From NCBI GenBank assembly GCA_965233585.1, contig CBDDTI010000295.1:32001-96000 (forward strand): 64,000 bases of DNA, written 5' to 3'. Of this stretch, positions 29,727 to 45,830 are shown piece by piece. Source of the stretch: a bacterium (lineage in GTDB: Bacteria; SAR324; NAC60-12). Position 1 is the stretch's first letter; every line of letters starts with the position of its first letter. The notes under the pieces are model-generated. The model did no database searches, had not been told where the DNA came from, and saw only the letters and a list, made by a program, of their open reading frames with translations. A program made the translations under genes and the position numbers.

Positions 29727-30308
29727 TTACTGTTTACTGGCAATCATTCCAATCAACTTGGCAGATTGCGCCCCGTCCATTTGGGAAAGAATGGCAGCAG
29801 ATGTTTTTTCTTTCATTTTGATTAAGATTTTGACAGCCACTTCAGGCTCCAATGCTGCAAGCGATTGAGCCGCCCTGCCAACTTCCATACGTTCGTAAAA
29901 CGCAATGGTCTTGTTAAACTGCTCATTATCAATGACTTTTTTGCGTTCAATGTCTTCTTGAATAGATTGCTGTAATTTCTCAAGTTGTTGAATTTGCCGC
30001 TTGATGTCATTTTCCAGAGACTTCAGTTGCTGTTCTCTTCTATTGAGTGCAATTTCCTTGGCATCTAACTTTTTTTCTTTCTCGAGCAATTTGGTCAAGA
30101 CTTGCTTCTCACTTTCTGTAAACTTACGAGGCTTCTTGACTTGAGTCTTTTCTTCATCTTTTGGAGAGCAAAAGTCCAAATTCCCTTTTTTACAAAGGTC
30201 TTTCACAAAATCTGGAACATCTACTGCCAAAATAAGACTTGGAAAAGCAATAAACATACCCAAACAGATTGTTTTTTTGACAAAGTGTTTCAACCTCTTC
30301 ATGCCCAC
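29727..30308 (-). CDS. MotE/FlbB-like flagellar protein (MgtE_N-like C-terminus)
   Basis: N-terminal hydrophobic segment, coiled coil, FYERM...AAQSL...MKEKTSAAILSQMD; lies between fliJ and fliK. Confidence 0.75.
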   Translation of the reverse strand: MGMKRLKHFVKKTICLGMFIAFPSLILAVDVPDFVKDLCKKGNLDFCSPKDEEKTQVKKPRKFTESEKQVLTKLLEKEKKLDAKEIALNRREQQLKSLENDIKRQIQQLEKLQQSIQEDIERKKVIDNEQFNKTIAFYERMEVGRAAQSLAALEPEVAVKILIKMKEKTSAAILSQMDGAQSAKLIGMIASKQ

Positions 30309-30384
30309 CTCTGTTTTGATAGTTTCATTGTCAAGTCATTTTTTTGTAAAAACTTCATATCTGCTTCGTGTCTTTTGAAAGGAT

Positions 30385-30831
30385 TCAGACTTGATGGTTT
30401 TGTTTCAACACATGATTTTGTGCAATTTCATCCATTTGTGAACGTTCTAATTGTTCCTGCTTCTTGCGGGCTAAGAGTTCCCTTTTTTCTTTAATGATTT
30501 CTAAAGCTCGTCTTTTTTGACCTGCTTGAGCCACTTCTGAACGTTTGCTTTCCACAAGTTGATTTTGTTCTTGTAGCCTTTGCTGAAGCAAGTTGATTTG
30601 ATACAGTAACCTCTTTTTAAAAGCATTATGTTCTTGTAACACTTGCACCGAAAGAATGCCTGTTTTCAGGCTGTCTGCTTGGAGGTCGCTTTGTGCAATA
30701 GATTGCTGTGCTTGTGCAATTTGGACTTCAAGATTTTTGGCAACTTGAAGCTGTTGGGCATATTCCTTTTGTTTCAGCTTCTCAAGTCGTTTACGAACAT
30801 CTAATGCAGTTTGTAGGCGAAATCTTTCCAT
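30385..30831 (-). CDS. fliJ: Flagellar export protein FliJ
   Basis: FRLQTALDVR N-terminus, coiled coil, ERSQMDEIA C-terminus, 148 aa. Confidence 0.85.
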   Translation of the reverse strand: MERFRLQTALDVRKRLEKLKQKEYAQQLQVAKNLEVQIAQAQQSIAQSDLQADSLKTGILSVQVLQEHNAFKKRLLYQINLLQQRLQEQNQLVESKRSEVAQAGQKRRALEIIKEKRELLARKKQEQLERSQMDEIAQNHVLKQNHQV

Positions 30832-30924
30832 CTTGTCTTCTGCTATACAAATAAAATGCCATTTGAAAGATTTTGATTTTGGAGTAAGCTATTTGGCTTG
30901 GACCAATCTGCAACCTTGACATTG

Positions 30925-33041: not shown

Positions 33042-33114
33042 CTAGCTTTTTTGCAAAAGCTAGGTTTGAGATTTAGAATTGAGGAATCCCTAGCCTTCTT
33101 TGCAAAAGGCTAGG
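33042..33114 (-). terminator. Twin GCAA-loop hairpins after FN3 gene copy 1
   Basis: Gene-strand CCTAGCCTTTT-GCAA-AGAAGGCTAGG and CTAGCTTTT-GCAA-AAAAGCTAG, followed by a pyrimidine tract. Confidence 0.7.
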
Positions 33115-33126
33115 AAAAGGGGAAGA

Positions 33127-35283
33127 TTAGAAACTGACCCAAGAAGAACACCCATTTGCGTTACAAGCTTTGACTTTATAACTTTTGGTCACTGACCTAA
33201 ATGAGGTCTGTGTCGTAGTCCCACCTCCTCCTCTATCACTTGTCATATAGTAAGTAGCACCTGAGACAGATGACCAGCTATGAGAATACCCACCAGAAAT
33301 GCGTACCCTTCTAGCATTTCTTGGAGGAAAGGGATAACTAGGAGTCATAATAGAAGCAGTGTTAGACCAAGAGCAACTACCACTAGAATTACAAGTTTGG
33401 ACTCGGTAATAGTATCCTGTATTGATACTTAAACTAGATGAGGTATCTGTGAAATTTGGCGTGGTCGGTATCCCAACCTTTGTATCAGAATCTGTCACAG
33501 TGCTACCAGTATCTCTGTAAACGTGATACTTAGATGCACCAGAAACTCCAGACCATGAAATCCTCACTCTTCCTTTATTAGAACCACTGGAAAGAATAGA
33601 CAAACTAATGCTGACAGGAGAAGGTGCAGTCTTAATAGAGGCAACGTTAGACCAAGAACAACTACCGCTAGAATTACAAGTTTGGATTCGAAAATGGTAG
33701 GTTGTGTTGGCAGTCAATTCAGCACTCACTATGAATCCCACTGTGGTAAATATCCCAATTTTCGTACCAGGAGGGTTGCTGGTATCGCCGTAAATGTGAT
33801 ATTTAGACGCACCTGAAACTGCAGACCATGTCCCCTGAATCTTCCCTTTGTAAGTCCCTGAAGTGACAATAGACATGCTGAGGCTGACAGCAGAAGGTGG
33901 AGACTTAATAGATTTTGCAACAGATTTTGCAGAACAGCCTGCCGCATTACAAGCATCTATTTTGTAGTAGTATGTTGTGTTAACGCTAGCAGTGGTGTCT
34001 GTATAGTCTGGTGTGTTCTCTGTACTGATTTTAGAGAATCCACTGCTTGCACTGGTGCTTCTGTAAACAGTGTAGCTTGTCGCTCCAGTCACGCTATCCC
34101 AGTTTATTCTGATCTTTCCTGCACTACTATCATCAGCACCAAGTATGGAAACGCTCTTGATTGTGGGAGTGTTAGGCTTGGACACTGCCCCCGGTAGATT
34201 CACACCAGCAGAAGCAACAGAAAGAGATGAGCAACCTGCAACATTGCATGCCTTCACTTTGTAGTAATAAGTTGAGCCTCTGGTTGCCGTATCTGTGTAA
34301 GTCGTGCCTGAATTGACTGTCGCTACTTTGGAGCTAAATGCACCACCACTGCTTGTGTCACTGTACACCTCATAACTTGTTGCTCCAGACAATCCACTCC
34401 AAGACACCGTGATTGTCGTCGCAGAGGCTTTTGCTGCTGTCGGCTTGCTAGGTGCATTGGGCTTGGACACTGCCCCCGGTAAATTGACACCAGCAGAAAC
34501 AACGGAAAAAGATGAACACCCTGACGCATTGCATGCCTTCACTTTGTAGTAATAAGTTGCCCCTCTGGGTGCTGTATCTGTGTAAGTCGTGCCTGAATTG
34601 ACTGTCGCTACTTTGGAGCTAAATGAACCACCGCTGTTGGTGTCACTGTACACTTCATAGCTGGTTGCTCCAGACACTGCAATCCAAGACACTGTGATTG
34701 TTGTTGCAGAGGCTTTCACTGCTGTCGGTTGAGATGGACTGCTAGGTGCAGAACCAGATGGCGAACTCGGAGACGAAGGAGGTCCAGATGGAGAATCAGA
34801 CGGAGAGCTGGAAGGGGAACGTGGAGAACTGGCAGGAACAACCTTGAAGTCTTCACTAAATTTAGCACCTAGCACCCTGCCTGACACTTTGCCTGTTCCC
34901 ATTTTTAAACCCTTGACCTGTACTTTCTTCTCAAAATCTGACTTCTTGTCTAAAATCAAAATCAAAGATCCTGTCTCTGCTTCAGAGTCTAATTTGCCAT
35001 CTTCCTTGTAAACTTTGATAGAAATCAGGTCTTTGTTATATTGAACTTTTAACTTTTTGCCTTGATAAAGAGAGCCAATATTTGTGCAACTGATCTTTGC
35101 CTCTTTCACAACGTCTTTTTGCAACGTCCCTTTTGCACTCAAATCACATTGAGGCTTTTCTGAACTCTGTGCGTCGTCTTCACTGCTTTCTCCTGCTGGA
35201 GGTTGACAAGCCACGAACACAAACATCAACAACCCAAACGAAAGTTTCCATAACTTCCACGATTTTTTGACTTTTCCAAACAT
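33127..35283 (-). CDS. FN3-repeat lipoprotein, array copy 1 (718 aa)
   Basis: Lipobox-like FVAC (Cys26), Ser/Pro linker, FN3 repeats with YYYKVKACNxxGCS; GGAG RBS before ATG 35283. Confidence 0.88.
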   Translation of the reverse strand: MFGKVKKSWKLWKLSFGLLMFVFVACQPPAGESSEDDAQSSEKPQCDLSAKGTLQKDVVKEAKISCTNIGSLYQGKKLKVQYNKDLISIKVYKEDGKLDSEAETGSLILILDKKSDFEKKVQVKGLKMGTGKVSGRVLGAKFSEDFKVVPASSPRSPSSSPSDSPSGPPSSPSSPSGSAPSSPSQPTAVKASATTITVSWIAVSGATSYEVYSDTNSGGSFSSKVATVNSGTTYTDTAPRGATYYYKVKACNASGCSSFSVVSAGVNLPGAVSKPNAPSKPTAAKASATTITVSWSGLSGATSYEVYSDTSSGGAFSSKVATVNSGTTYTDTATRGSTYYYKVKACNVAGCSSLSVASAGVNLPGAVSKPNTPTIKSVSILGADDSSAGKIRINWDSVTGATSYTVYRSTSASSGFSKISTENTPDYTDTTASVNTTYYYKIDACNAAGCSAKSVAKSIKSPPSAVSLSMSIVTSGTYKGKIQGTWSAVSGASKYHIYGDTSNPPGTKIGIFTTVGFIVSAELTANTTYHFRIQTCNSSGSCSWSNVASIKTAPSPVSISLSILSSGSNKGRVRISWSGVSGASKYHVYRDTGSTVTDSDTKVGIPTTPNFTDTSSSLSINTGYYYRVQTCNSSGSCSWSNTASIMTPSYPFPPRNARRVRISGGYSHSWSSVSGATYYMTSDRGGGGTTTQTSFRSVTKSYKVKACNANGCSSWVSF

Positions 35284-35325
35284 CTCTTTTCTCCCGCATC
35301 TTGGGCTAGGCAATAAAAGGGAATT

Positions 35326-35355
35326 ATTCTACCCAAGACTCACAGGAAATGTCAA
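35326..35355 (-). promoter_or_regulatory. Duplicated sigma70 promoter of copy 1
   Basis: TTGACA-N18-TAGAAT on the minus strand, conserved in front of four array genes. Confidence 0.7.
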
Positions 35356-35489
35356 TGAAAATTTTGATCAGGGTTGATGTGTCTCAACTCATGTTTTGAA
35401 TCAGGCAGCAACTTGAGCCTTCCTTTGCCAAAGGAGTGTGTTTGAGAATGTGGTACGAAGCAAGACAACAATGAGAGTGAGAAGAAAAG

Positions 35490-35565
35490 AACCCAGCTTT
35501 TTTGCAAAAGCTAGGTTTGAGATTTAGAATTGAGGAATCCCTAGCTTTCTTTGCAAAAGGCTAGG
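35490..35565 (-). terminator. Twin GCAA-loop hairpins after copy 2
   Basis: AACCTAGCTTTT-GCAA-AAAAGCTGGGTT then CTTTTCTTCT on the gene strand, plus a second hairpin nearer the stop. Confidence 0.7.
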
Positions 35566-35575
35566 AAGGGAGAGA

Positions 35576-38023
35576 TTAGAAATTGACCCAAGCAGAACAC
35601 CCATTGGAATTGCATGCCCTGACTGATGTGTATGTTCTAGGTGAGAAAAGTGCAACAGTGCCATGATTTATAATAGAACCGTCAGACTTAAGGAGCTGGT
35701 ATGAAGCCGATGAAACAGGTCCCCATCTGTAATAATCTCCTGACTTTTTAGCAAATCCTGGAGCAGAAGGATAATTAGGAGTCGTAATAGAGGGAGTGTT
35801 AGACCATGAACAATTACTAGAATTACAAGTTTGAACTCGGTAATAATATTTTGTATTACCACTTGCAGACGTATCTGTGACGTTCGGTGAGGTCTCTGTT
35901 GAAACCTTTGTATCAGAATCTGTCACAGTGCGACTGGTGTCTCTATAAATGTGATATTTAGACGCACCTGAAACTCCAGACCAAGTCACCCTCACTCTCC
36001 CTTTATCGGCACCGCTAGAAAGAGTGGACAAACTAATGCTGACAGGTGAAGGAGGAGTCGTAATAGAGGCAGTGTCAGACCAAGAGCAACTGCCACCACT
36101 ATTACAGACTTTCATTCGGTAATAGTATTTTTGATTTGAGGATGATGTTCCATCTGTTCTTTTTCTTGAACTCGCACGAGGAATATTAGGATAAGTGGCA
36201 ATTTTTGTATCAGAGTCTGTCACATCACTACTGGTGTCCCTATAGACGTGATATTGACGTCCCTGTGCGGCCAAAGACCATGAAAATACTACTTTCCCTT
36301 TATGGGAACCATCATCTCTGATGCTCAAAGTGAGGGGAGCTGGCTTTGGAGGTGCAGACTTAATAGACTTGACAGCAGAATCTGCAGAACAGCCTGCCGT
36401 ATTACAAGCATTTATTTTGTAGTAGTATGTTGTGTTAACGCCAGCAGTGGTGTCTGTCATGCCTGACGTGGTCTCTGTGCTGATTTTAGAGAATCCACTG
36501 CTTGCACTGGTGCTTCTGTAAACATTGTAGCTGGTCGCTCCAGTGATGCTATCCCAGTCTATTCTGACCTTTCCTGCACTACTATCATCGGCACCAAGTA
36601 TGGAAACGTTGATTGTAGGGACACTGGGTTTGGACACTGCCCCCGGCAGATTGACACCAGCAGAAGCAACAGAAAGGGATGAACAACCTGAAGCATTGCA
36701 TGCCTTCACTTTGTAGTAATAAGTTGACCCTCTGGGTGCTGTATCTGTGTAAGATGTACCTGAATTGACTGTTGCCACTTTGGAGCTAAATGAACCACCA
36801 TCGCTTGTGTCACTGTACACCTCATAACTTGTTGCTCCAGACACTCCACTCCAAGACACCGTGATTGTTGTTGCAGAGGCTTTCACTGCTGCCGGCTTGC
36901 TAGGTGCATTGGGCTTGGACACTGCACCCGGATTGACACCAGCAGAAGCAACAGAAAGAGATGAGCAACCTGCCGCATTGCATGCCTTCACTTTGTAGTA
37001 ATAAGTTGACCCTCTGGGTGCTGTATCTGTGTAAGATGTACCTGAATTGACCGTTCCTACTTTGGAGCTAAATGCACCACCACCGCTTGTGTCACGATGC
37101 ACTTCATAACTGGTTGCTCCAGTTTTTGCACTCCAAGACACTGTGATTGTTGTTGCAGAGGCTTTCACTGCTGTCGGCTTGCTAGGTGCATTGGGCTTGG
37201 ACACTGCACCCGGTAAATTGACACCAGCAGAAACCACGGAAAAAGATGAACAACCTGAGGCATTGCATGCCTTCACTTTGTAGTAATAAGTTGCCCCTCT
37301 GGGTGCTGTATCTGTGTAAGTTGTGCCTGAATTGACCGTTGCTACTTTGGAACTGAATGACCCAATACTGCTGGTATCGCTGTACACTTCATAACTGGTT
37401 GCTCCAGACACCCCATTCCAAGACACTGTAATTGTTGTCGCAGAGGCTTTCACTGCTGTCGGTTGAGATGGACTGCTAGGTGCAGAACCAGATGGCGAAT
37501 CAGACGGAGAACTCGGATACGAAGGAGAGCCAGAAGGAGAATCAGACGGAGAACTTGGTGAACTCAAACTAGCAGGAACAACCTTGATTTCTGCACTAAA
37601 TCTGGCACTTAATACTTTGCCTGACACCTTGCTTGATCCCAGTTTTAATCCCTTGACCTGTACTTTCTTTTCAAAATCTGACTTCTTGTCTAAAATCAAA
37701 ATCAAAGACCCTGTCTCTGCTGCAGAATCTACCTTGCCATCTTCCTTGTAAACTTTGATAGAAACCAAGCCTTTATTATACTGGACTTTTAACTTCTTGC
37801 CTTGATAAAAGGAGCCGATGTTTGTGCAAATGATCTTTGCCTCTTTCACAACATCTTTTTGCAACGTTCCTTTTGCACTCAAATCACATTTGGGCTTTTC
37901 TGAACTCTGTGTGTCGTCTTCACTGCTTTCTTCTGCTGGAGGTTGACAAGCAACAAAGACAAACATCAACAATCCAAACGGAAGTTTCCATAACTTCCAC
38001 GATTTCTTTGCTTCTCCAAACAT
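35576..38023 (-). CDS. FN3-repeat lipoprotein, array copy 2 (815 aa; three proximal repeats)
   Basis: Same architecture as copy 1 with one extra ATTITVSW-type FN3 repeat. Confidence 0.88.
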   Translation of the reverse strand: MFGEAKKSWKLWKLPFGLLMFVFVACQPPAEESSEDDTQSSEKPKCDLSAKGTLQKDVVKEAKIICTNIGSFYQGKKLKVQYNKGLVSIKVYKEDGKVDSAAETGSLILILDKKSDFEKKVQVKGLKLGSSKVSGKVLSARFSAEIKVVPASLSSPSSPSDSPSGSPSYPSSPSDSPSGSAPSSPSQPTAVKASATTITVSWNGVSGATSYEVYSDTSSIGSFSSKVATVNSGTTYTDTAPRGATYYYKVKACNASGCSSFSVVSAGVNLPGAVSKPNAPSKPTAVKASATTITVSWSAKTGATSYEVHRDTSGGGAFSSKVGTVNSGTSYTDTAPRGSTYYYKVKACNAAGCSSLSVASAGVNPGAVSKPNAPSKPAAVKASATTITVSWSGVSGATSYEVYSDTSDGGSFSSKVATVNSGTSYTDTAPRGSTYYYKVKACNASGCSSLSVASAGVNLPGAVSKPSVPTINVSILGADDSSAGKVRIDWDSITGATSYNVYRSTSASSGFSKISTETTSGMTDTTAGVNTTYYYKINACNTAGCSADSAVKSIKSAPPKPAPLTLSIRDDGSHKGKVVFSWSLAAQGRQYHVYRDTSSDVTDSDTKIATYPNIPRASSRKRTDGTSSSNQKYYYRMKVCNSGGSCSWSDTASITTPPSPVSISLSTLSSGADKGRVRVTWSGVSGASKYHIYRDTSRTVTDSDTKVSTETSPNVTDTSASGNTKYYYRVQTCNSSNCSWSNTPSITTPNYPSAPGFAKKSGDYYRWGPVSSASYQLLKSDGSIINHGTVALFSPRTYTSVRACNSNGCSAWVNF

Positions 38024-38066
38024 CTCTTTTCTCCTGTATCTTGGGCTCAGACAATAAAAGGGCTCT

Positions 38067-38096
38067 ATTCTAACCAAGACTCACAGAGAACGTCAA
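38067..38096 (-). promoter_or_regulatory. Duplicated sigma70 promoter of copy 2
   Basis: TTGACG-N18-TAGAAT. Confidence 0.65.
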
Positions 38097-38203
38097 TGAA
38101 AATTTTGATATAGAGTTGATGCAATTCAATCCATGTTGTGAATCAAGCGGTTACTTTAGCTTTCCTTTGCCAAAGGGGACAACAATGAGAGTAAGAAGAA
38201 AAG

Positions 38204-38278
38204 AACCCAGCTTTTTTGCAAAAGCTAGGTTTTGGATTTTGGAATTGAGAACTCCCAGCCCTTTTGCAAAAGGCTAGG
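38204..38278 (-). terminator. Twin GCAA-loop hairpins after copy 3
   Basis: Same paired inverted repeats as at 35490. Confidence 0.7.
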
Positions 38279-38295
38279 AAAGGGAGAAAAGTGAC

Positions 38296-40464
38296 CTAAA
38301 AATAAGACCAAGACGAACACCCATTGGAATTGCATGCCTTGACTCTATCGTATTTTGTACTTGAAGAAAATGAGGTAACTGACTTATTCGCACTTCTCCC
38401 ATAATAGTCCACCACATAGTAAGTAGCTCCTGAAACAGATGACCAACTGTAAGAAAAGCTAGCCCAACTAGCAGTCCTGCTAGCATTTTTTGGAGCAGAT
38501 GGAGCTGGAGGTTTGGGAGTTGTAATAGAAGGAGTATTAGACCAAGAACAACTACCACCAGAATTGCAAGTTTGAACTCGGTAATAATATTTTGTATTTG
38601 CACTTGCAGACGTATCTGTGACGTTCGGTGTGGTCTCTGTTGAAACCTTTGTATCAGAGTCTGTCACAGTGCTACTGGTGTCTCTGTAAATATGATACTT
38701 AGATGCACCAGAAACTCCAGACCATGAAACCCTCACTTTTCCTTTATTGCTACCACTGGAAAGAGTAGACAAACTAATGCTGACAGCAGAAGGTGGAGTT
38801 TTAATAGAAGGAGCATTAGACCATGAACAACTGCCACTAGAATTACAAGTTTGGACTCGGTAATAGTAGGTTGTGTTGGCATTATTCAAAGAAGAAGTAT
38901 CTGTGACGTTCGGTGTGGTCTCTGTTGAGATCTTTCTATCAGAATCTGTCACAGTGCTACCGGTGTCTCTATAAATGTGATATTTAGATGCACCTGAGAC
39001 TGCAGACCAAGTTACCCTCACTTGTCCACTGTCAAGAATAGACAAACTGATGCTGACAGCAGAAGGTGGAGACTTAATAGATTTCGCTGCAGATTTTGCA
39101 GAACAACCTGCCGCATTACAAGCATCTATTTTGTAGTAATAGGTTGTATTGGGGGTGGCAGAGGTGTCTGTTTTGTCTGGTGAGTTCTCTGTGCTAATTT
39201 TAGAGAATCCACTGTTTGCATTGGTGCTTCTGTAAACATTGTAGCTGGTCGCTCCAGTCATACTATCCCAGTCTATTCTGACTTTTCCTGCATCACCACT
39301 ACTAGCACCGAATATAAAAACCCTTTTGATTGTAGGAGTAGGAAACGCACTTGGTAAATTGACACCATCAGAAACCACGGAAAGAGATGAACAACCTGCA
39401 ACGTTACATGCCTTCACTTTGTAGTAATAAGTTGCCCCTCTGGTTGCTGTGTCTGTGTGAGTTGTGCCTGAATTGACCGTTCCTACTTTGGAGCTAAATG
39501 AACCACCACTGCTTGTGTCCCGATACACTTCATAAGTAGTCGCCCCAGTTTCCCCACTCCAAGACACCGTGATTGTTGTTGCAGAGGCTTTTGCTGCTGT
39601 CGGCTTGCTAGGTGCATTGGGTTTGGACACTGCCCCCGGTAAATTGACACCAGCAGAAGCAACAGAAAGAGATGAACAACCTGACGCATTGCATGCCTTC
39701 ACTTTGTAGTAATAAGTTGCCCCTCTGGGTGCTGTATCTGTGTAAGATGTGCCTGAATTGACCGTTCCTACTTTGGAGCTAAAGGAACCACCACCGCTTG
39801 TGTCCCGATACACTTCATAACTTGTTGCTCCAGTTTTTGCACTCCAAGACACTGTGATTGTTGTTGCAGAGGCTTTCGCAGCAGTCGGTTGAGATGGACT
39901 GCTAGGTGCAGAACCAGATGGAGAATCAGACGGAGAACTCGGAGACGAAGGAGAGCCAGATGGAGAATCAGACGGAGAACTGGAAGGGGAACGTGGAGAA
40001 GATGGCAGACTAGCAGGAATAACCTTGAAATCTTCACTAAATTTAGCACTTAGCACCCTACCTGACACTTTGCCTGAACCTAATTTTAATCCCTTGACCT
40101 GTACTTTCTTTTCAAAATCTGACTTCTTGTCTAAAATCAAAATCAAAGAACCCTTCTCTGCCTCAGAATCTAATTTGCCATCTTCCTTGTAAACTTTGAT
40201 AGAAATCAGGTCTTTGTTATACTGGACTTTTAACTTCTTGCCTTGATAAAGAGAGCCGATGTTTGTGCAACTGATCTTTGCCTCTTTCACAACATCTTTT
40301 TGCAACGTTCCTTTTGCACTCAAATCACATTGAGGCTTTTCTGAACTCTGTGCGTCGTCTTCACTGCTTTCTCCTGCTGGAGGTTGACAAGCCACGAACA
40401 CAAACATCAACAATCCAAACGGAAGTTTCCATAACTTCCACGATTTCTTTGCTTCTCCAAACAT
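38296..40464 (-). CDS. FN3-repeat lipoprotein, array copy 3 (722 aa)
   Basis: FVAC lipobox, longest Ser/Pro linker, FN3 repeats, C-terminus RVKACNSNGCSSWSYF. Confidence 0.88.
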   Translation of the reverse strand: MFGEAKKSWKLWKLPFGLLMFVFVACQPPAGESSEDDAQSSEKPQCDLSAKGTLQKDVVKEAKISCTNIGSLYQGKKLKVQYNKDLISIKVYKEDGKLDSEAEKGSLILILDKKSDFEKKVQVKGLKLGSGKVSGRVLSAKFSEDFKVIPASLPSSPRSPSSSPSDSPSGSPSSPSSPSDSPSGSAPSSPSQPTAAKASATTITVSWSAKTGATSYEVYRDTSGGGSFSSKVGTVNSGTSYTDTAPRGATYYYKVKACNASGCSSLSVASAGVNLPGAVSKPNAPSKPTAAKASATTITVSWSGETGATTYEVYRDTSSGGSFSSKVGTVNSGTTHTDTATRGATYYYKVKACNVAGCSSLSVVSDGVNLPSAFPTPTIKRVFIFGASSGDAGKVRIDWDSMTGATSYNVYRSTNANSGFSKISTENSPDKTDTSATPNTTYYYKIDACNAAGCSAKSAAKSIKSPPSAVSISLSILDSGQVRVTWSAVSGASKYHIYRDTGSTVTDSDRKISTETTPNVTDTSSLNNANTTYYYRVQTCNSSGSCSWSNAPSIKTPPSAVSISLSTLSSGSNKGKVRVSWSGVSGASKYHIYRDTSSTVTDSDTKVSTETTPNVTDTSASANTKYYYRVQTCNSGGSCSWSNTPSITTPKPPAPSAPKNASRTASWASFSYSWSSVSGATYYVVDYYGRSANKSVTSFSSSTKYDRVKACNSNGCSSWSYF

Positions 40465-40507
40465 CTCTTTTCTCCTGTATTTTGGGTCTAGGCAATAAAA
40501 TGGGTCT

Positions 40508-40537
40508 ATTCTACCCAAGACTCACAGAGAATGTCAA
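40508..40537 (-). promoter_or_regulatory. Duplicated sigma70 promoter of copy 3
   Basis: TTGACA-N18-TAGAAT. Confidence 0.7.
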
Positions 40538-40671
40538 TGAAAATTTTGATACAAAGTTGATGTGTCTCAACCCATGTTGTGAATTAAGCAGTGACTTGAA
40601 CCTTCCTTTGCCAAAGAAGTGTATTGAGAATGTCATACAAAGTAGGGACAACAACGAAGTGAGAAGAAAAG

Positions 40672-40747
40672 AACCCAGCCTTTTTGCAAAAGCTAGGCTT
40701 GGGATTTTAGAATTGAGAACCCCCTAGCCTTCTTGCAAAAGGCTAGG
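40672..40747 (-). terminator. Twin GCAA-loop hairpins after copy 4
   Basis: Same paired inverted repeats. Confidence 0.7.
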
Positions 40748-40759
40748 AAAAGGGAGAGA

Positions 40760-40807
40760 TTAGAAAATAGTCCAATCAGAACCCCCAATGGCATTGCATG
40801 CCCTGAG
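40760..40807 (-). pseudogene. Stranded C-terminal remnant of copy 4
   Basis: Translates to LRACNAIGGSDWTIF-stop, matching the other copies' C-termini, but lies out of frame after the copy 4 stop. Confidence 0.8.
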
Positions 40808-40811
40808 TTTA

Positions 40812-42416
40812 TTATGGAGTCCTAACAGAGACAGTATTAGACCAAGAGCAACTTCCGCTAGAATTACAAGTTTGAACTCGGTAATAGTATATTGTATTTC
40901 TATTTAATCTGGCTCTGTCTACGACGTTGGGTGTGGTCTCTGTTGAAACCTTTGTATCAGAATCTGTCACGGTGCTACTGGTGTCTCTATAAATGTGATA
41001 TTTAGATGCACCTGAGACTGCAGACCAAGTGATCTTCGGTCTTGAGTTATACAAATTCACAAAATGCATAGATCCGCTGATGCTGGCAGCAGAAGGTGGA
41101 GATTTAATAGATTTCGCTGCAGATTTTGCAGAACAGCCTCCCGCGTTACAAGCATCTATTTTGTAGTAATAGGTTGTATTGGCGGAGGCAGTGGTGTCTG
41201 TCTTGTCTGGTGAGTTCTCTGTGCTAATTTTAGAGAATCCACTGTTTGCATTGGTGCTTCTGTAAACATTGTAGCTTGTCGCTCCAGTCACGCTATCCCA
41301 GTCTATTCTGACTTTTCCTGCATCACCACCACTAGCACCGAGTATGAAAACCCTTTTGATTGCTGGGGTTGGAGGAGGCATTGCAACACCAGTAGAAGCA
41401 ACAGAAAGAGATGAACAACCTGCTGCGTTGCATGCCTTCACTTTGTAGTAATAAGTTGCCCCGCCGGGTGCTGTATCTGTGTGAGTTGTGCCTGAATTGA
41501 CCGTTCCTACTTTGGAGCTAAAGGAACCACCACTGCTTGTGTCCCGATACACTTCATAAGTTGTTGCCCCAGTTGCTGCACTCCAAGATACCGTGATTGT
41601 CGTTGCAGAGGCTTTCACCGCTGTCGGCTTGCTAGGTGCATTGGGTTTGGACACTGCCCCCGGTAAATTCACACCAGCAGAAACCACGGAAAGAGATGAA
41701 CAACCTGCCGCATTGCATGCCTTCACTTTGTAGTAATAAGTTGCCCCTCTGGGTGCTGTATCTGTGTAAGTCGTGCCTGAATTGACCGTTCCTACTTTGG
41801 AGCTAAAGGAACCACCACCGCTTGTGTCCCGATACACTTCATAACTGGTTGCTCCAGACACTGCACTCCAAGACACTGTGATTGTTGTCGCAGAAGCTTT
41901 CACTGCTGTCGGTTGAGATGGACTACTAGGTGCAGAACCAGATGGCGAATCAGACGGAGAACTGGCAGGAACAACCTTGAAGTCTTCACTAAATCTGGCG
42001 CTTAACACCCTGCCTGACACCTTGCCTGTTCCCATTTTTAAACCCTTAACCTGTACCTTCTTTTCAAAATCTGACTTCTTGTCTAAAATCAAAATCAAAG
42101 ATCCCGTCTCTGCTTCAGAGTCTAATTTGCCATCTTTCTTATAGGCTTTGATAGAAATCAGGTCTTTGTTATACTGGACTTTTAACTTCTTACCTTGATA
42201 AAGAGAGCCGATATTTGTGCAACTGATCTTTGCCTCTTTCACAACATCTTTTTGCAACGTCCCCTTTGCACTCAAATCACATTGAGGCTTTTCTGAACTC
42301 TGTGTGTCGTCTTCACTGCTTTCTTCTGCTGGCGGTCGGCAAGCCACAAATACAGACATTACCAACACAAACGAAAGTTTCCACAACTTCCACGATTTTT
42401 TGACTTCTCCAAACAT
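40812..42416 (-). CDS. FN3-repeat lipoprotein, array copy 4 (534 aa; C-terminally truncated)
   Basis: Same N-terminus and stalk; only one distal FN3 and no tip domain. Confidence 0.85.
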   Translation of the reverse strand: MFGEVKKSWKLWKLSFVLVMSVFVACRPPAEESSEDDTQSSEKPQCDLSAKGTLQKDVVKEAKISCTNIGSLYQGKKLKVQYNKDLISIKAYKKDGKLDSEAETGSLILILDKKSDFEKKVQVKGLKMGTGKVSGRVLSARFSEDFKVVPASSPSDSPSGSAPSSPSQPTAVKASATTITVSWSAVSGATSYEVYRDTSGGGSFSSKVGTVNSGTTYTDTAPRGATYYYKVKACNAAGCSSLSVVSAGVNLPGAVSKPNAPSKPTAVKASATTITVSWSAATGATTYEVYRDTSSGGSFSSKVGTVNSGTTHTDTAPGGATYYYKVKACNAAGCSSLSVASTGVAMPPPTPAIKRVFILGASGGDAGKVRIDWDSVTGATSYNVYRSTNANSGFSKISTENSPDKTDTTASANTTYYYKIDACNAGGCSAKSAAKSIKSPPSAASISGSMHFVNLYNSRPKITWSAVSGASKYHIYRDTSSTVTDSDTKVSTETTPNVVDRARLNRNTIYYYRVQTCNSSGSCSWSNTVSVRTP

Positions 42417-42458
42417 TGCTTCTCTCCTGTAATTGAGTTTAAAAAATAAAATGGGTCT

Positions 42459-42488
42459 ATTCTACCCAAAACTCACAGAGAATGTCAA
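42459..42488 (-). promoter_or_regulatory. Duplicated sigma70 promoter of copy 4
   Basis: TTGACA-N18-TAGAAT; the IS1 begins 11 bp upstream of the -35 box. Confidence 0.65.
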
Positions 42489-42499
42489 GAAAAATTTTG

Positions 42500-43259
42500 G
42501 GCATTGTTAAGTAATAAGTGATAGCTGATTATTCCGTTTTGCCATGAACAAAAGAACAGAATATTGTAATGCTTTAAGAGACTTGCTGTAACATTTGGTT
42601 TTCCTTCTCATTCTTGCCAAGAAATGTCTCAAGAGAGAATTATACCCTTCTATCGTGTATGTTTCTGCCTTGGAACATGTATGAATTTCTTTGGGAATGA
42701 CTTGTTTGTAAGCCTTGCAGTGATCAGTCATCACCTGAAGAGGTTTTGTTTCCTTGACCTTGTCCCATAAATGCCTACAGGCTTTTGAGTCTCTGTTTCC
42801 AAGCACATAATTGATAAATTGCTTCCCACGTCTATCAACAGCAATCCAGAGCCAGCAGTAGTTTTTTTTGACTGGATGTAGGTGTGCATTTCATCAATTT
42901 CCATAATTTCAATGTCTGTGTCCTTTCTTAATGCCTTGAGCTGTTCGCCAAAACTACAGACCCAATTATAAACTGAAACATGAGAACAATTCAGCAAACG
43001 ACCGATTGACCTGAAACCAAGACCCTCCAAATACAACTCTAATGCTCTTCTTTTGATCTGTGGTGAGATTTGACCACGATAGGACTTGGTATATTGATAG
43101 TTGCAGGCATTGCAACGCCTCCTCGGTTTACCATATAAAAAACCATTCTTAACCGTCTTCTCACTTTCACATCTAGGACACAACTTCATTGCTACACCAT
43201 GACTATCAATTCAATTAAATGAAATTAATATCGCATATCACTTATAGTTTAACAATACC
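42500..43259 (-). mobile_element. IS1-family insertion sequence (760 bp)
   Basis: Terminal inverted repeats GGCATTGTTAAGTAATAAGTGATA / GGTATTGTTAAACTATAAGTGATA (20/24). 8-bp target duplication AAATTTTG at 42492-42499 and 43260-43267. insA/insB-type ORFs inside. Confidence 0.95.
42507..43189 (-). CDS. IS1 transposase InsAB via -1 programmed frameshift
   Basis: InsA zinc finger CPRC...CNAC plus HTH. A8C slippery run at 42861-42869. The -1 frame reads KNYCWLWIAVDR...MTDH...IEGYN, completing the DDE triad with EIDEM. Confidence 0.9.
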
Positions 43260-43389
43260 AAATTTTGATATAGAGTTGATGATTCAATCCATGTTGTGCA
43301 TCAAGCGGTTACTTTAGCTTTCCTTTGCCAAAGAGGTGTATTGAGAATGTCATACAAATTGGGGACAACAATGAGAGTAAGAAGAAAAG

Positions 43390-43507
43390 AACCCAACTTT
43401 TTTGCAAAGCTAGGTTTGAGATTTGGACAGCTTTTTTGTAAAAGCTAGAAAAGCTAGGTTTGAGATTTGGAATTGAAAAACCCTAGCCCTTTTGCAAAAG
43501 GCTAGGG
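43390..43507 (-). terminator. Hairpin set after copy 5, with a partial internal duplication
   Basis: Same hairpins; AAGCTAGGTTTGAGATTTGG occurs twice. Confidence 0.65.
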
Positions 43508-43517
43508 AAGGGAGAGA

Positions 43518-45638
43518 TTAGAAAAACGTCCAATCAGAACAACCTGCCAAGTTACATGATCTGACAAAGGCATATGAGTTGGTAGATATAATCTTGGTGG
43601 ATGTGGTACGTCTTATTGAAAAGTCACGAGTGTCCATCAACTGATAGTAAGAAGCCCCTGAGACTGCAGACCAAGAATAGGTATTTCCCCTATGCTTAGC
43701 ATTGGTTGGCTTAGCTGGAGCAGTAGAAAGCAGTGTAATAGATTCAGTGCTAGACCACGAACAAACACCACCAGAATTACAAGTTTGGACTCGGTAGTAG
43801 TAGGTTTTATCCGTACTGACAGAAGTATCTGTGACGTTTGGTGTGGTCTCGGTTGAAACCTTGTGGTCTGATCCACCTACACGGCTATCGGTATCTCTGT
43901 AAATGTGATATTTAGACGCACCTGAAACCCCAGACCAAGTCACCCTCACTTTTCCTGCATTAGGACCACTGTCAAGAATAGACAAACTGATGCTGACAGG
44001 TGGAGGTCCAGTTTTAACAGAAGCCGTGTTAGACCATGAACAACTACCGCTAGAATTACAAGTTTGGATTCGGTAATAGTGGGTTGTATTGGGACTTGGG
44101 TCATCTAGGGTGTCTGGTGAGGTCACAGTTGAAACCTTTCTATCAGAGTCTGTTACAGTGCTGGTGGTGTCTGTATAAATGTGATATTTAGATGCACCTG
44201 AAACCCTAGACCATGTCACAAATACATTTCCATTGACAAAAAGAGACAAACTGATGCTGGCAGGAGAAGGTGGAGACTTAATAGATTTTGCAACAGATTG
44301 ATCAGAACACCCTGCTGCATTACAAGCATCTATCTTGTAGTAATAGGTTGTGTTAGGGGAGGCAGTGGTGTCTGTCTTGTCTGGTGTGTTCTCTGTGCCA
44401 ATTTTAAAGAATCCAAAGCTTGCACGGGTGCTTCTATAAACATTGTAGCTGGTCGCTCCAGTCACGCTATCCCAGTCTATTCTGATCTTTCCTGCACTAG
44501 CATCATCAGCACCAAGTATGAAAACGCTCTTGATTGCTGGGATTGGAGGGGGCAGTGCAACACTAGCAGAAACAACAGAAAGAGATGAGCAACCTGCCAC
44601 ATTGCATGCCTTCACTTTGTAGTAGTAAGTCACCCCGCCGGGTACTGTATCTGTGTAAGCCGTTCCTGAATTGACCGTTCCTACTTTGGAACTAAATGAA
44701 CCACCGCTACTTGTGTCACGATACACTTCATAGCTTGTTGCTCCAGACGCTGCACTCCAAGACACCGTGGTTGCCGTCGCTGAGGCTTTCACCGCTGTCA
44801 GCTTGCTAGGTGCATTGGGTTTTGACAACGCCCCCGACAAATTCACGCCAGCAGAAATAACAGAAAGAGATGAACAACCTGCCGCATTGCATGCCTTCAC
44901 TTTGTAGTAATAAGTTGCCCCTCTAGGTGCTGTATCTGTGTAAGTCGTGCCTGAATTGACTGTCGCTACTTTGGAACTAAATAAACCACCGCTACTTGTG
45001 TCGCTATACACCTCATAACTGGTTGCTCCAGAAACTGCACTCCAAGACACCGTGATTGTTGTTGCAGAGGCTTTCGCTGCTGTCGGTTGAGATGGACTGC
45101 TAGGTGCAGAACCAGATGGCGAATCAGACGGAGAACTTGGTGATGAAGGTGAGCCAGACGGAGAACTTGGAGATGATGGCAGGCTAGCAGGAACAACCTT
45201 GAAGTCTGCATTAAATCTAGCACTCAATACTTTACCTGTCACCTTGCCTGAACCCAGTTTTAAACCCTTGACTTGGACTTTCTTCTCAAAATCTGACTTC
45301 TTATCTAAAATCAAAATCAAAGACCCTGTCTCTGCCTCAGAATCTACTTTGCCATCTTCCTTGTAAACTTTGATAGAAATCAGGTCTTTTTTGTACTGAA
45401 CTTTTAGCTTCTTACCCTGATAAAGGGAATTGATGTTGGAACAACTAATCTTTGCCTCTTTCGCAACATCTTTTTGCAACGTCCCTTCCGCACTAAAGTT
45501 ACATTGGGGCTTCTCTGAACTCTGTGTGCTTTCTTCGCTACTTTCTTCTGCTGGCGGTTGACAAGCCACAAACACAGACATCACTAATCCAAACGAAAGT
45601 TTCCATAATTTCGGAGACTTCTTTACTTCTTCAAACAT
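43518..45638 (-). CDS. FN3-repeat lipoprotein, array copy 5 (706 aa; first in transcription order)
   Basis: FVAC lipobox, AAGGAGG RBS, FN3 repeats, C-terminus VRSCNLAGCSDWTFF. Confidence 0.88.
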   Translation of the reverse strand: MFEEVKKSPKLWKLSFGLVMSVFVACQPPAEESSEESTQSSEKPQCNFSAEGTLQKDVAKEAKISCSNINSLYQGKKLKVQYKKDLISIKVYKEDGKVDSEAETGSLILILDKKSDFEKKVQVKGLKLGSGKVTGKVLSARFNADFKVVPASLPSSPSSPSGSPSSPSSPSDSPSGSAPSSPSQPTAAKASATTITVSWSAVSGATSYEVYSDTSSGGLFSSKVATVNSGTTYTDTAPRGATYYYKVKACNAAGCSSLSVISAGVNLSGALSKPNAPSKLTAVKASATATTVSWSAASGATSYEVYRDTSSGGSFSSKVGTVNSGTAYTDTVPGGVTYYYKVKACNVAGCSSLSVVSASVALPPPIPAIKSVFILGADDASAGKIRIDWDSVTGATSYNVYRSTRASFGFFKIGTENTPDKTDTTASPNTTYYYKIDACNAAGCSDQSVAKSIKSPPSPASISLSLFVNGNVFVTWSRVSGASKYHIYTDTTSTVTDSDRKVSTVTSPDTLDDPSPNTTHYYRIQTCNSSGSCSWSNTASVKTGPPPVSISLSILDSGPNAGKVRVTWSGVSGASKYHIYRDTDSRVGGSDHKVSTETTPNVTDTSVSTDKTYYYRVQTCNSGGVCSWSSTESITLLSTAPAKPTNAKHRGNTYSWSAVSGASYYQLMDTRDFSIRRTTSTKIISTNSYAFVRSCNLAGCSDWTFF

Positions 45639-45830
45639 GACTTCCTCCTTACTTCTAATTTAATGAACAAAAAATAAATAAAAAATGAAATTACATTTTA
45701 CATGGTTTTTAGGACGGTTCAAATAAAAAATAATTTTTTATTGTTTTTACAAAAAATTCTTCTGCAGGAAGAGACTTCAGACGATTCATCAAAGTCTTGT
45801 ATGATGACAAGTCTCAAAGGCAGACTTGAA

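Follow-up and report, generated by a model that had tools for sequence, protein, structure and literature searches.

A tandem array of five FN3 lipoprotein genes with a shared base domain and two fast-evolving modules

The Lig proteins of Leptospira (LigA/LigB) are lipoproteins with a long row of beta-sandwich modules, and their paralogues are almost exactly alike upstream and in the proximal modules, but unlike distally. SusE/SusF-type surface glycan-binding lipoproteins of Bacteroidota have a lipidated N-terminal cysteine and an Ig-like proximal domain that holds the beta-sandwich binding modules at the distal end away from the membrane; their paralogues diverge fast. Lipoprotein multigene families with programmed variation are found in Borrelia (Vlp/Vsp, vls) and Mycoplasma (Vsa/Vlp). 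They have a conserved signal or 5' region, distal regions that vary, recombination among the copies, and defining switches: silent cassettes that feed a single expression site, promoters that invert, or phase switching at simple repeats. The mosaic adhesive trimer (MAT) fibres of Bdellovibrio have an invariable N-terminal cell-proximal domain, the partner of which was not identified, and their paralogues carry exchangeable C-terminal tips, for which "tip swapping" has been proposed (PMC10769870).

Here we analyze a window (the whole stretch of 64,000 nucleotides) with five minus-strand paralogues, g1 to g5, flanked by an RNase II/R-family gene and polA. A preliminary description had noted this arrangement, which is borne out, and had read it as a repertoire of surface binding proteins under diversifying selection. 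Its observations are confirmed in part, and its interpretation is partly supported.

The array and its transcription units

The tandem gene array is real (Table 1). The RNase II/R-family gene is convergent with g1, and polA, which shares the strand of g5, lies upstream of it. A sixth paralogue is located on the same contig, about 150 kb away. The modules follow the order A1, A2 (three A modules in g2), B, C1, C2 and tip, with four to seven FN3 modules per array protein. The A/B/C/tip layout that had been claimed holds for the four long genes, but not for g4, which has a single C module and lacks a tip.

Table 1. Positions of genes, modules and putative signals in the window
Feature	Position	Strand	Details
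RNase II/R-family exoribonuclease gene	30898..32913	+	TIGR02063, E 6.3e-46, under the curated cut-off
Terminator-like hairpin past g1	33042..33063	-	
g1, FN3 lipoprotein	33127..35283	-	718 aa; C1 33628-33900, C2 33340-33627, tip 33130-33339
Promoter-like site, g1	35326-35355		same site as g4
Related hairpin, g2	35490-35517		
g2, FN3 lipoprotein	35576..38023	-	815 aa; three type-A 36626-37471, C1 36056-36352, tip 35579-35776
Promoter-like site, g2	38067-38096		same site as g4, 10/12
Related hairpin, g3	38204-38231		
g3, FN3 lipoprotein	38296..40464	-	722 aa; base 40018-40389, linker 39898-40017, A1 39622-39897, A2 39343-39621, B 39070-39342, C1 38797-39069, C2 38515-38796, tip 38299-38514
Promoter-like site, g3	40508-40537		same site as g4
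Related hairpin, g4	40672-40699		
Out-of-frame tip C-terminus remnant past g4 stop	40760..40810	-	KLRACNAIGGSDWTIF*
g4, truncated FN3 lipoprotein	40812..42416	-	534 aa; base, 16-aa linker, A1, A2, B, C1; without C2 and tip
Promoter-like site, g4	42459..42488	-	TTGACA-18-TAGAAT (11/12)
IS1-family insertion sequence	42497..43262	-	766 bp; NF033558, E 6.5e-27 and 2.4e-19; transposase ORFs 42731-43189, 42507-42806
Related hairpins, g5	43481-43507, 43390-43416		
g5, FN3 lipoprotein	43518..45638	-	706 aa; signal 45564-45638, base 45192-45563, linker 45096-45191, A1 44820-45095, A2 44547-44819, B 44274-44546, C1 44010-44273, C2 43728-44009, tip 43521-43727
polA (DNA polymerase I)	45831..48377	-	NF004397, 860 bits, over the cut-off

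Might repeat mis-assembly have inflated fewer genes to an array? No contig in the runs examined bridges the array to fix the copy order (pieces of 340-886 nt), and the assembly consists of 747 contigs. However, exact matches (0 differences) to the sequences unique to each copy, from tips, C1 and intergenic regions, are present in Logan contigs of runs X1, X2 and X4 with a flank-like depth of about 5-15, copies differ in 6-16% of nucleotides even in the base domain, and the array sits inside a 256-kb contig. We find an assembly artefact hardly credible. A second study (run X5) likewise yields the g1 tip (886 nt, 0 differences), and the presence of the same allele there argues against very fast turnover.

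All five genes start with MF[GE][EK][VA]KKS, preceded by an AGGAG-type Shine-Dalgarno, and encode VFVAC with Cys26; the lipoprotein signals noted earlier are thus present in the whole array, and also in 32 of the 33 ORFs with the base domain. The promoter-like sites of g1-g4 are embedded in a conserved leader. Judging from the sequence, the intact copies appear to be complete, separate transcription units, each with promoter-like site, Shine-Dalgarno, signal peptide and terminator-like hairpin.

The topology favoured by quartet-informative sites switches from one part of the gene to another (p = 0.0018, 2e-6 and 0.0015), a mosaic ancestry that points to recombination among copies. Such mosaicism would also be expected if the array were a programmed antigenic or phase variation system, with a single copy active at any time and new surface variants arising by cassette recombination or on/off switches, and a short contig in X1 and X4 in which g3 sequence runs into g5 (39963 to 45187, depth 4-5) would agree with this. 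But the promoter-like site is common to g1-g4, and no copy lacks a Shine-Dalgarno, a start codon or a full signal peptide. We found no silent or promoterless cassettes in the array, no simple repeats or homopolymers of at least 8 outside the insertion sequence, and no inverted repeats flanking a promoter, which together speak against a programmed variation system. Synonymous divergence of 0.26-0.79 between base domains suggests that the exchanges are old and not ongoing, and the g3-g5 joint, which lies between paralogous stretches and has a side of only 30 letters with 22 letters between, may be an assembly chimera. The analogy to antigenic variation that had been drawn therefore fails in its defining features, as every copy is a complete transcription unit and no switches were found, and we consider programmed variation highly improbable.

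g4 is a decayed copy, a deletion/frameshift derivative, because the shifted frame straight after its stop codon encodes a remnant of the tip C-terminus. An IS1-family element, absent from the preliminary description, separates the g5 terminators from the g4 promoter. It has 27-nt terminal inverted repeats, 33 matches in the genome (at least 700 bp, at least 98.2% identity), and a depth of 109-157 versus about 6 in adjoining bins.

The base domain and its relatives

The N-terminal, or base, domain has 124 aa and 84-96% protein identity between array copies. The earlier figure of about 120 aa holds, but "near-identical" was overstated in view of the synonymous divergence. The domain has no Pfam or PDB sequence match, and no named family covers it, in line with the earlier remark that the array was not recognised as a named family. 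About 35 copies are present in the genome (33 ORFs by a custom profile, 35 matches by profile A1), and the heads of 12 scanned members are Kelch in 2, RCC1 in 4, FN3 in 1 and without Pfam match in 5. The domain was found in none of 87 other genomes of the phylum, which offer no allele set for comparison. On this evidence the base domain, found almost nowhere else, is a larger finding than the array itself. It probably serves as a common handle in a superfamily of lipoproteins, about 35 in number and specific to this lineage, in which other members carry Kelch or RCC1 propellers, or an uncharacterised domain, on the same base.

Two cysteines are invariant in all 32 aligned copies. The predicted structure of the g3 base is all-beta (pLDDT 80.9), and its best structural matches are cohesin modules (2w1n_A, Z 10.3, rmsd 3.0, 111 residues; 2vo8_A, Z 9.7). 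The base might thus be a cohesin-like docking module that plugs the lipoproteins into a cell-surface partner, in the manner of a cellulosome-type scaffold, with the array supplying alternative subunits of a multi-protein surface complex, and it is the one part kept across the otherwise different lipoproteins. However, complement/alpha-2-macroglobulin MG, PAD and transglutaminase domains (Z 9.0-9.6) are tied with cohesin within 1 Z unit, Foldseek ranks C3c and SbsC first, Pfam Cohesin matches only 1/32 members (E 0.094), and a search of this genome (92.5% complete) for Dockerin_1 gave no match, although control genomes were positive. A cohesin role of the modelled domain is improbable.

The FN3 rod and its fast modules

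A Ser/Pro linker, as claimed, follows the base (16-40 aa). Pfam fn3 exceeds its cut-off in all five array proteins, which supports the proposed rod-like multi-FN3 build, and the described Cys pair in the FN3 modules is recovered by the pattern C[ND]xxG(x)CS, with six occurrences per long gene (g1, g2, g3 and g5) and four in g4. The ending CNxxGCSxWxxF-COOH occurs in 4 of 13,840 ORFs genome-wide, only in the four intact array genes. ChitinaseA_N and GH85_C, both FN3-like linkers, are among the Pfam side matches of the array proteins.

From the base through A1, A2, B, C1 and C2 to the tip, mean protein identity is 88, 91, 85, 79, 56, 78 and 41%, and the fraction of invariant columns is 0.73, 0.82, 0.73, 0.63, 0.30, 0.62 and 0.26. 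The steady fall in identity from anchor to tip that had been described is not seen. Instead, C1 (strongly diverged in g2) and the tip are hypervariable, and the C2 module that separates them is conserved. In the same order, tree length per codon is 0.97, 0.89, 1.28, 1.20, 4.32, 1.72 and 5.26, so that C1 and tip evolve at 4-5 times the base rate (4.3 and 5.3 versus 0.9-1.3), as expected from the claim of fast-evolving distal parts.

Maximum-likelihood omega is 0.19, 0.21, 0.30, 0.58, 0.51, 0.25 and 0.70. Divergence is uneven and omega climbs from base to tip, as diversifying selection would have it, but the mean exceeds 1 in none of the seven segments, and relaxed constraint accounts for the values equally well. 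B, C1 and C2 have omega below 1 (test against omega = 1: C1 p = 2.7e-4, C2 p = 1e-10), and the tip alone cannot be told from neutral evolution (p = 0.125), in a data set of four tips and 66 codons that has no power for site tests. The two least saturated tip pairs involving g2 give pairwise omega of 1.16 and 1.05, with uncertain tip alignments and synonymous divergence near saturation in g5 pairs (dS 1.27-1.42). C1 and tip also exceed the other segments 2-3 times in synonymous divergence, so the "constant base" partly reflects homogenisation by recombination, not selection alone.

The C2+tip model of g3 (pLDDT 92.1) matches a tandem FN3 pair (3f7q_A, Z 12.4, 158 residues) and a single FN3 (3mpc_B, Z 12.6, rmsd 1.8, 88 residues). 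The tips are short FN3 modules of 66-72 aa (pLDDT 88-96), and such scaffolds do not support the idea of distinct receptor-binding domains. The invariant tip columns (17/66) are the Trp/Tyr/Cys-Asn-Gly-Cys-Ser-Trp-Phe framework positions, and variation sits in the A-B and C'-E-F regions, whereas the FG turn is invariant. In engineered FN3 domains the FG turn is most often the binding loop, so this pattern counts against a binding repertoire.

It is possible, if rather unlikely, that the proteins are structural envelope components with no ligand repertoire, their FN3 rods serving as spacers or coat (periplasm-spanning, capsule- or S-layer-like) and C1 and tip drifting under weak constraint. The omega values, nowhere above 0.70, would suit this, and g4 has kept promoter and frame despite losing C2 and tip, suggesting that the tip may be dispensable. 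FN3 modules are also common as linkers in bacterial enzymes, as with the side matches above, and a foreign relative, P0014, has an FN3 spacer between base and Kelch head. On the other hand, 4/5 tips still have an open frame and a complete set of framework residues in spite of a tree length of about 5 substitutions per codon, indels are limited to loops, and a conserved C2 amid two fast modules is hard to reconcile with relaxation by distance from the anchor.

A model for the array and comparison with known systems

On balance, we favor a tandem lipoprotein family, likely of envelope binding proteins with different specificities, without programmed switching. A whole transcription unit (promoter, leader, gene and terminator) would have been duplicated, and later reshaped by recombination between copies, local fast divergence and decay of one copy. 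The precursor would be cut after VFVA and lipidated on Cys26, which an acidic tether would connect to a beta-sandwich base with probable disulfides. Beyond the linker, six or seven FN3 modules would form a rod, the CNxxGCS cysteine pair presumably stapling the FG turn. C1 and the terminal mini-FN3 would present paralogue-specific surfaces; in both, the scaffold residues persist and almost every other position varies, as does the length of some loops. Cell-envelope binding proteins of differing specificities are the most likely identity of the array products, which are probably outward-facing and expressed from separate promoters. The fast evolution of two rod modules fits such a set, but is no proof of it. 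In diderm bacteria a lipoprotein stays on the periplasmic side unless it is exported, which counts against surface exposure.

The array resembles the Borrelia and Mycoplasma families in its conserved 5' parts, its variable distal parts and its recombination among copies, but the switches that define those families were sought in the array and not found. The array proteins resemble SusE/SusF, from another phylum, in their predicted layout and in the fast divergence of paralogues, and g5 has a marginal Pfam SusE match (E 0.0089, under the cut-off). There are no SusC/SusD neighbours or polysaccharide-utilisation locus around the array, no carbohydrate-binding module is recognised in its proteins, and the acidic stretch of the Bacteroidota export signal is nearer the cysteine. 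The F-G turn of FN3 also takes the ACNxxGCS form in 8 more ORFs of this genome and in unrelated metagenomic proteins, e.g. P0130 and P0116 (a lipoprotein with four Cys-pair FN3 modules), but these other proteins have neither the base domain nor the mini-FN3 C-terminus.

The MAT fibres follow the same logic as the base family with its Kelch, RCC1, FN3 or uncharacterised heads, and we found no relation in sequence or fold. MAT fibres are trimeric beta-helix/beta-prism structures, some with an S74 protease, and neither lipoproteins nor FN3 rods; their genes are dispersed, and surface location and glycan binding have been demonstrated, whereas exposure and binding of the array proteins are inferred. 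The Lig proteins differ in having Big_2 instead of FN3 modules, two or three genes instead of a tandem array of five, and no equivalent of the base domain or the Cys-stapled FG turn. Host-protein binding is experimentally established for Lig, while the array is known from sequence and models. As in Lig, the array copies have promoter, leader, base and A modules in common, and differ in their distal modules.

Layout of the locus and reality of the copies

The preliminary description of this DNA reported five same-strand paralogues between an RNase II gene and polA. This is what the assembly (12.0 Mb, 747 contigs, 92.5% complete, 2.1% contamination, GC 39.8%) contains, with all five FN3 lipoprotein genes, g1 to g5, on the minus strand.

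Coordinates of the array, its flanks and related features of the genome (window positions, unless one of the contigs C295, C746 or C747 is named)
Feature	Position	Strand	Size	Remark
RNase II/R-family gene	30898-32913	+		flank of array
g1	33127-35283	-	718 aa	array gene
g2	35576-38023	-	815 aa	array gene
g3	38296-40464	-	722 aa	array gene
g4	40812-42416	-	534 aa	array gene
IS1-family element	42497-43262		766 bp	27-nt inverted repeats; between g5 terminators and g4 promoter
g5	43518-45638	-	706 aa	array gene
polA	45831-48377	-		other flank; followed in transcription order by g5, g4, g3, g2, g1
g6	C295:226308-228224		619 aa from its ATG	base, linker, A1 and A2 in common with array
Family tandem cluster	C747:432654-442033			five genes
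Family tandem cluster	C747:983640-993907			four genes
Family tandem cluster	C746:321968-329472			three genes

All five array proteins start with MF[GE][EK][VA]KKS, 7-8 nt downstream of an AGGAG-type Shine-Dalgarno sequence; longer TTG-started ORFs from a mechanical listing were rejected as read-through upstream into a conserved leader. Substrates of signal peptidase II have a positive n-region, a hydrophobic h-region and a lipobox that ends in Cys within about 35 residues, with the pattern [LVIMFASTG]2-[LVIFYSTAGCQ]-[AGS]-C according to the PROSITE rule. In each of g1 to g5, three or four Lys and a 12-residue hydrophobic stretch precede VFVAC with Cys26, so the lipobox claimed earlier is present in 5/5 genes, and by pattern the products fit predicted signal peptidase II lipoproteins. 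The signal region is followed by an acidic stretch (PPAEESSEDD-like), a base of 124 aa in which two Cys are invariant, 16-40 aa of Ser/Pro linker, and FN3 modules arranged as A1, A2 (g2 has three A modules), B, C1, C2 and tip. Pfam fn3 (PF00041) scores 47.5-60.9 bits in the five genes, above the cut-off of 25 in each; further Pfam rows (ChitinaseA_N, GH85_C, Ig_J_second) are FN3-like side matches. Beyond A2, g6 has unrelated FN3 modules (45-51% nucleotide identity) and no tip.

Whether the copies are real was judged from sequencing runs that contain the organism's sequence: of the sampled words, 69-71% occur in each of four runs (X1-X4) and 29% in X5, which comes from another study. No run recorded as RNA was among those listed. 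Population sequence was taken from Logan contigs, in which rare variants are dropped. The contigs of X1, X2 and X4 cover 30/30 bins and match the unique parts of the copies (33065-33409, 35516-35855, 35897-36509, 38203-38596, 40451-40959 and 43366-43995) with 0 differences; an assembly artefact is therefore extremely improbable. As X1-X4 may be the source of the assembly, only X5 is independent. At depth 2 it matches 33044-33929 exactly, a stretch with the g1 tip, C2 and part of C1, and it leaves 7/30 bins uncovered. None of the Logan contigs of the runs bridges two copies, so the evidence for copy order and number is the 256-kb contig itself. In X1 and X4, 39963 and 45187 are joined by one short contig with a 30-letter side, likely a graph chimera between paralogous base regions. 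An X5 contig of depth 2 at 37470-37841, on the border of g2 linker and base, shows 32 letter differences and 12 gap positions, and may represent either a variant in linker length or a mis-placed paralogue.

Flagellar genes adjoin the locus (28381-30831, minus strand), with a FliJ match just under the cut-off (E 1.4e-12) and a weak match to an FlbB-like collar protein far under it (E 5e-8). RNase II orthologues occur in 25/25 genomes. At the locus, seven relatives were examined (36-43% identity), and their 16-kb stretches contain no polA, FliJ, FlbB-like gene or array gene; the locus is therefore not comparable across relatives.

Expression signals, exchange between copies and two fast modules

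Shine-Dalgarno sequence, ATG and full signal peptide are present in 5/5 array genes. The genes g1-g4 and g6 have a leader in common in which TTGACA-18-TAGAAT lies about 50 nt ahead of the start codon; counted as consensus matches only, the promoter-like score is 11/12 in g1, g3 and g4 and 10/12 in g2. Behind all five genes lie related GC-rich hairpins with T-rich tails, terminator-like by consensus only. The shared leader and hairpins indicate that the duplicated unit is the whole gene with its signals. We found no promoterless or truncated silent cassettes with a single expression site among the array copies, no simple-sequence repeats of at least four units in the array region, and no inverted repeats bracketing a promoter there; the only homopolymer of at least 8 nt lies inside the IS. 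Tandem repeats in the region are the A modules themselves (period 282-285) and a weak 12-nt periodicity of the linker. By the defining tests for such systems, the array is thus not a variable lipoprotein system of the cassette or switch type.

One feature of variation loci, segmental recombination between copies, is present here, as topology support shifts along the gene. The nearest neighbour changes from the base, where g1 pairs with g3 (94% nucleotide identity), to B, where g3 pairs with g4 (93.4%) and g1 with g2 (88.5%), and to C2, where g2 pairs with g3 (88.5%). Quartet-informative sites are heterogeneous between segments in 3/3 quartets tried (p = 0.0018, 2e-6 and 0.0015); B, for example, backs g1g2|g3g4 by 23:1:2, and the base splits 1:6:5. 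C1 and tip also exceed the other segments 2-3 times in dS, so the "constant base" owes its constancy partly to exchange among copies, from which C1 and the tip are exempt, and not to stronger purifying selection alone. With a base dS of 0.26-0.79 these exchanges are not recent, and their age does not suggest ongoing switching. Programmed variation would explain the recombination between copies, but we consider it very improbable, given that silent cassettes, simple-sequence repeats and invertible promoter segments were not found and that the exchanges are old.

Conservation and rates of the segments of the five array genes (dN/dS and dS by Nei-Gojobori, pooled over gene pairs; omega and tree length per codon by maximum likelihood under GY+F3X4)
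Segment	Mean protein identity	Invariant columns	dN/dS	dS	ML omega	Tree length
base	88%	0.73	0.13	0.45	0.19	0.97
linker					0.18	2.10
A1	91%	0.82	0.16	0.30	0.21	0.89
A2	85%	0.73	0.23	0.38	0.30	1.28
B	79%	0.63	0.43	0.30	0.58	1.20
C1	56%	0.30	0.43	0.88	0.51	4.32
C2	78%	0.62	0.31	0.51	0.25	1.72
tip	41%	0.26	0.65	0.99	0.70	5.26

Identity had been described as falling from anchor to tip. The segment values contradict this gradient, because a conserved C2 stands between C1 and the tip, and they therefore delimit two hypervariable modules parted by a conserved one. The segments differ in rate and the tip omega is 0.70; the pattern named beforehand as speaking against diversification, uniform divergence with low dN/dS at the tips, is therefore not what the genes display. 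Neutral evolution (omega = 1) is rejected for B (p = 0.017), C1 (2.7e-4) and C2 (1e-10), and not for the tip (p = 0.125). Pairwise tip omega is 1.16 for g3-g2, 1.05 for g2-g1, 0.55 for g3-g1 and 0.46-0.62 for the pairs with g5, whose dS is near saturation; the estimates keep the invariant columns, as dropping them to raise omega would be circular. The diversifying selection originally proposed is thus not refuted, C1 and tip being fast and the tip compatible with neutrality, but positive selection is not demonstrated either. The main rival to a binding function is that the proteins are structural or act as spacers and that their weakly constrained modules drift; it appears to us rather unlikely, though it is to be taken seriously.

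A tip was thought to be present in every copy, which is true of g1, g2, g3 and g5, but g4 lacks both C2 and tip. The next frame right behind its stop codon reads KLRACNAIGGSDWTIF*, the last 16 tip codons with the second Cys changed to Gly, so that g4 is a deletion or frameshift derivative of a once tip-bearing gene.

The structure of C2 and tip was modeled jointly from the four-sequence alignment, with a mean pLDDT of 92.1 (88-96 in the tip, where seven strands are predicted). Residues 1-166 match solved tandem FN3 pairs at Z 11-12.4 over about 155 residues, with a high rmsd that stems from domain orientation (top match 3f7q_A, Z 12.4, 158 residues; many more at Z 11), and residues 1-93 match single FN3 domains at Z 12.6 and rmsd 1.8. 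In this model the tip is predicted to be a short FN3 domain. Its 17 invariant columns out of 66 form the FN3 framework (the strand B Trp, the strand C Tyr and Val-x-x-Cys-Asn-x-x-Gly-Cys-Ser-x-Trp-x-x-Phe) and the remaining positions change, a pattern that fits a conserved scaffold bearing free or selected surfaces. In C1, changes and indels fall in the A-B region and from strand C' to strand F; strand C does not vary, nor does the F-G hairpin with its Cys pair. The C1 of g2 (36056-36352) has 52.7-58.0% nucleotide identity to its counterparts and dS 1.0-1.8, next to a C2 module with 88.5% identity to that of g3; either module replacement or local hyperdivergence would account for it.

The ending CNxxGCSxWxxF-COOH is confined to the four intact array genes among the 13,840 ORFs of the genome. 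A search with C1-C2-tip gave 1241 matches from 7989 scored candidates; relatives among the best 120, which were listed, are the genome's own g3, g2 and g5, followed only by generic FN3 proteins at no more than 39% identity, and g1 is absent from these 120. FN3 modules with a Cys pair also occur outside the base-domain family, in the database proteins P0116 and P0130.

The base domain, its family and the IS1 element

The profile of the five bases finds 33 base-domain ORFs in the genome, and a profile of 32 bases finds 35 matches. A lipobox is present in 32/33 ORFs, the sole miss being an N-terminally cut ORF. Most members continue from the lipidated Cys with C-x-P-P-A-E-E-x-E-E, and two further Cys are invariant. 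The stretch behind the lipidated Cys (the first 12 columns of the 32-base alignment, e.g. 40354-40389, minus strand) is conserved although members are about 30% identical elsewhere; judging by sequence, it may act in sorting or as a tether. Among 12 members scanned, one is g6 (FN3), two carry Kelch propellers, four carry RCC1 propellers, and five have no Pfam match in about 250 C-terminal residues. The gene at C746:612836 combines the base with one Cys-pair FN3. Heads in the three further tandem clusters are Kelch or RCC1 propellers or the domain of about 250 aa without Pfam match, and no shared partner gene is obvious beside the clusters. Small ORFs of two kinds are found repeatedly between the lipoprotein genes of separate clusters, one at C747:436084-436566 and C746:324004-324366, the other at C747:990811-991374 and C746:324949-325512, which suggests small mobile or accessory modules that travel with the family.

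The base is modeled as an all-beta sandwich (pLDDT 80.9). Its best structural matches are cohesins (2w1n_A, Z 10.3, rmsd 3.0, 111 residues; 2vo8_A, Z 9.7), from which one could propose that the base docks in a cohesin-like way. We regard this as improbable, because the cohesin rows are within one Z of complement/alpha-2-macroglobulin MG, PAD and transglutaminase sandwiches, because Pfam Cohesin (PF00963) matches 1/32 bases at E 0.094, and because dockerin (PF00404) has 0 matches in the 92.5% complete genome, the control matching in 2/14 genomes. Foldseek places C3c and the S-layer protein SbsC first. No Pfam family matches more than 4/32 bases (best E 0.0075), and no PDB sequence matches the base profile below E 0.13. 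The ESM Atlas gave best values of 0.81 for the base and 0.78 for the ~250-aa head domain, below lead level; the families named there were Ig-like, with Big_5 at 0.78 for the head domain. The Slam/SlipAM profile (PF04575) had no match, but also matched 0/14 control genomes and is therefore uninformative.

Outside this genome the base is rare. In a search of 1.84 billion representative proteins, its profile matched 36 at E <=0.001 and 17 at E <=1e-10. Of 19 matches examined, 11 are the genome's own, as judged by eye, and eight are singletons on ENA metagenome contigs of 8-40 kb; these eight are lipoproteins with RCC1, the ~250-aa domain, or FN3 and Kelch (P0014). Long multi-stretch matches are limited to the last third of the profile, as would be expected of Ig-like repeats. 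A single-protein search did not find the base in 40 relatives (24 of the same family, 16 of the same order), the 32-base profile matched 0/87 other genomes of the phylum, and a JGI metagenome scan returned 309 pattern matches with no relative among them. Searches of the SAR324 literature, in the parts that were accessible, turned up no such lipoprotein family.

The element between g5 and g4 has the features of the IS1 family, i.e. a two-frame transposase, a length of about 770 bp, terminal inverted repeats and multiple copies. NF033558 matches its two transposase ORFs at positions 1-114 and 132-199 of 199; the gene being split, neither match reaches the 100-bit cut-off. The genome contains 33 matches of 700 bp or longer, all at least 98.2% identical, and depth over the element is 109-157 in three runs versus about 6 in neighbouring bins: it is a young, multi-copy element. 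Copies include C295:228325-229088, C746:321108-321885 and C295:100757-101521; one copy lies 101 bp behind g6 and one 83 bp before another base-domain gene. An association with the family (a copy within 1.5 kb of 6/33 base-domain genes versus 2.0 expected, permutation P 0.04) was judged too weak, because genes in clusters do not count independently. Every base-domain gene and every IS copy is on one of five contigs of more than 100 kb (C295, C729, C745, C746 and C747; 2.92 Mb), and the other 742 contigs (9.09 Mb) have none of either. These have the same GC (39.7%) and do not duplicate the large ones (23 kb aligned at >=90%). The restriction may be an assembly effect of repeats or reflect a heterogeneous bin, so that copy numbers are lower bounds or the 12-Mb size is doubtful.

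A modular family among known surface systems

Together, our data lead us to lean towards envelope binding proteins in a birth-and-death family, whose C1 and terminal mini-FN3 bear paralogue-specific faces and whose genes have separate promoters. Each protein would form a lipid-anchored rod of base, flexible linker and six or seven FN3 modules. An FN3 module is about 3.5 nm long. The FN3 part would thus span at least 20 nm, as long as a typical periplasm is wide, which favours an outward-facing protein. The paired Cys need an oxidising compartment, either the periplasm or the outside.

Taken alone, the array is ordinary paralogue evolution of a modular surface-type protein, and the part that deserves follow-up is the lineage-restricted base domain on some 35 differently headed lipoproteins. 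A bolder and distinctly speculative proposal, which we think will probably not hold, is that the base and its conserved acidic tether are a lineage-invented display handle that takes lipoproteins to the cell surface or docks them there. With interchangeable heads (Kelch, RCC1, the ~250-aa domain, FN3 rods), it would serve some 35 recognition proteins for prey, host or particle surfaces, and the FN3 array would be the subfamily in which diversity arises from shuffling of modules among the tandem copies and from rapid change in two of the modules. Should the proteins be surface-exposed, they would offer an entry point to the ecology (attachment targets) of a lineage known only from metagenomes, as well as a natural example of FN3 scaffolds with diversity on faces other than the FG loop. 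Should they be periplasmic or structural, what is left is an ordinary lineage-specific paralogue expansion.

Several bacteria recognise hosts or prey by means of multigene families of modular surface proteins whose base is constant and whose distal parts vary. As far as the accessible parts of the sources go, the closest layouts are those of the Leptospira Lig proteins, in which the upstream region and proximal modules are shared and the distal modules unique (PMC7821625), and of the Bdellovibrio MAT fibres, with an invariable cell-proximal N-terminal domain and swapped tips (PMC10769870). The likeness is one of outline. The array family belongs to neither, as it has FN3 modules versus Big_2 in Lig and a beta-helix in MAT, and its base is a different, unannotated domain. 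With cassette- and switch-based variable lipoprotein systems the array has recombination between copies in common, but not their defining switches. The same constant-base logic is thus built here from different parts, in an uncultured bacterium with a very large genome. Distinguished by a handle that lacks a sequence match in Pfam and PDB, the array is a variant of the modular constant-base surface-type families.
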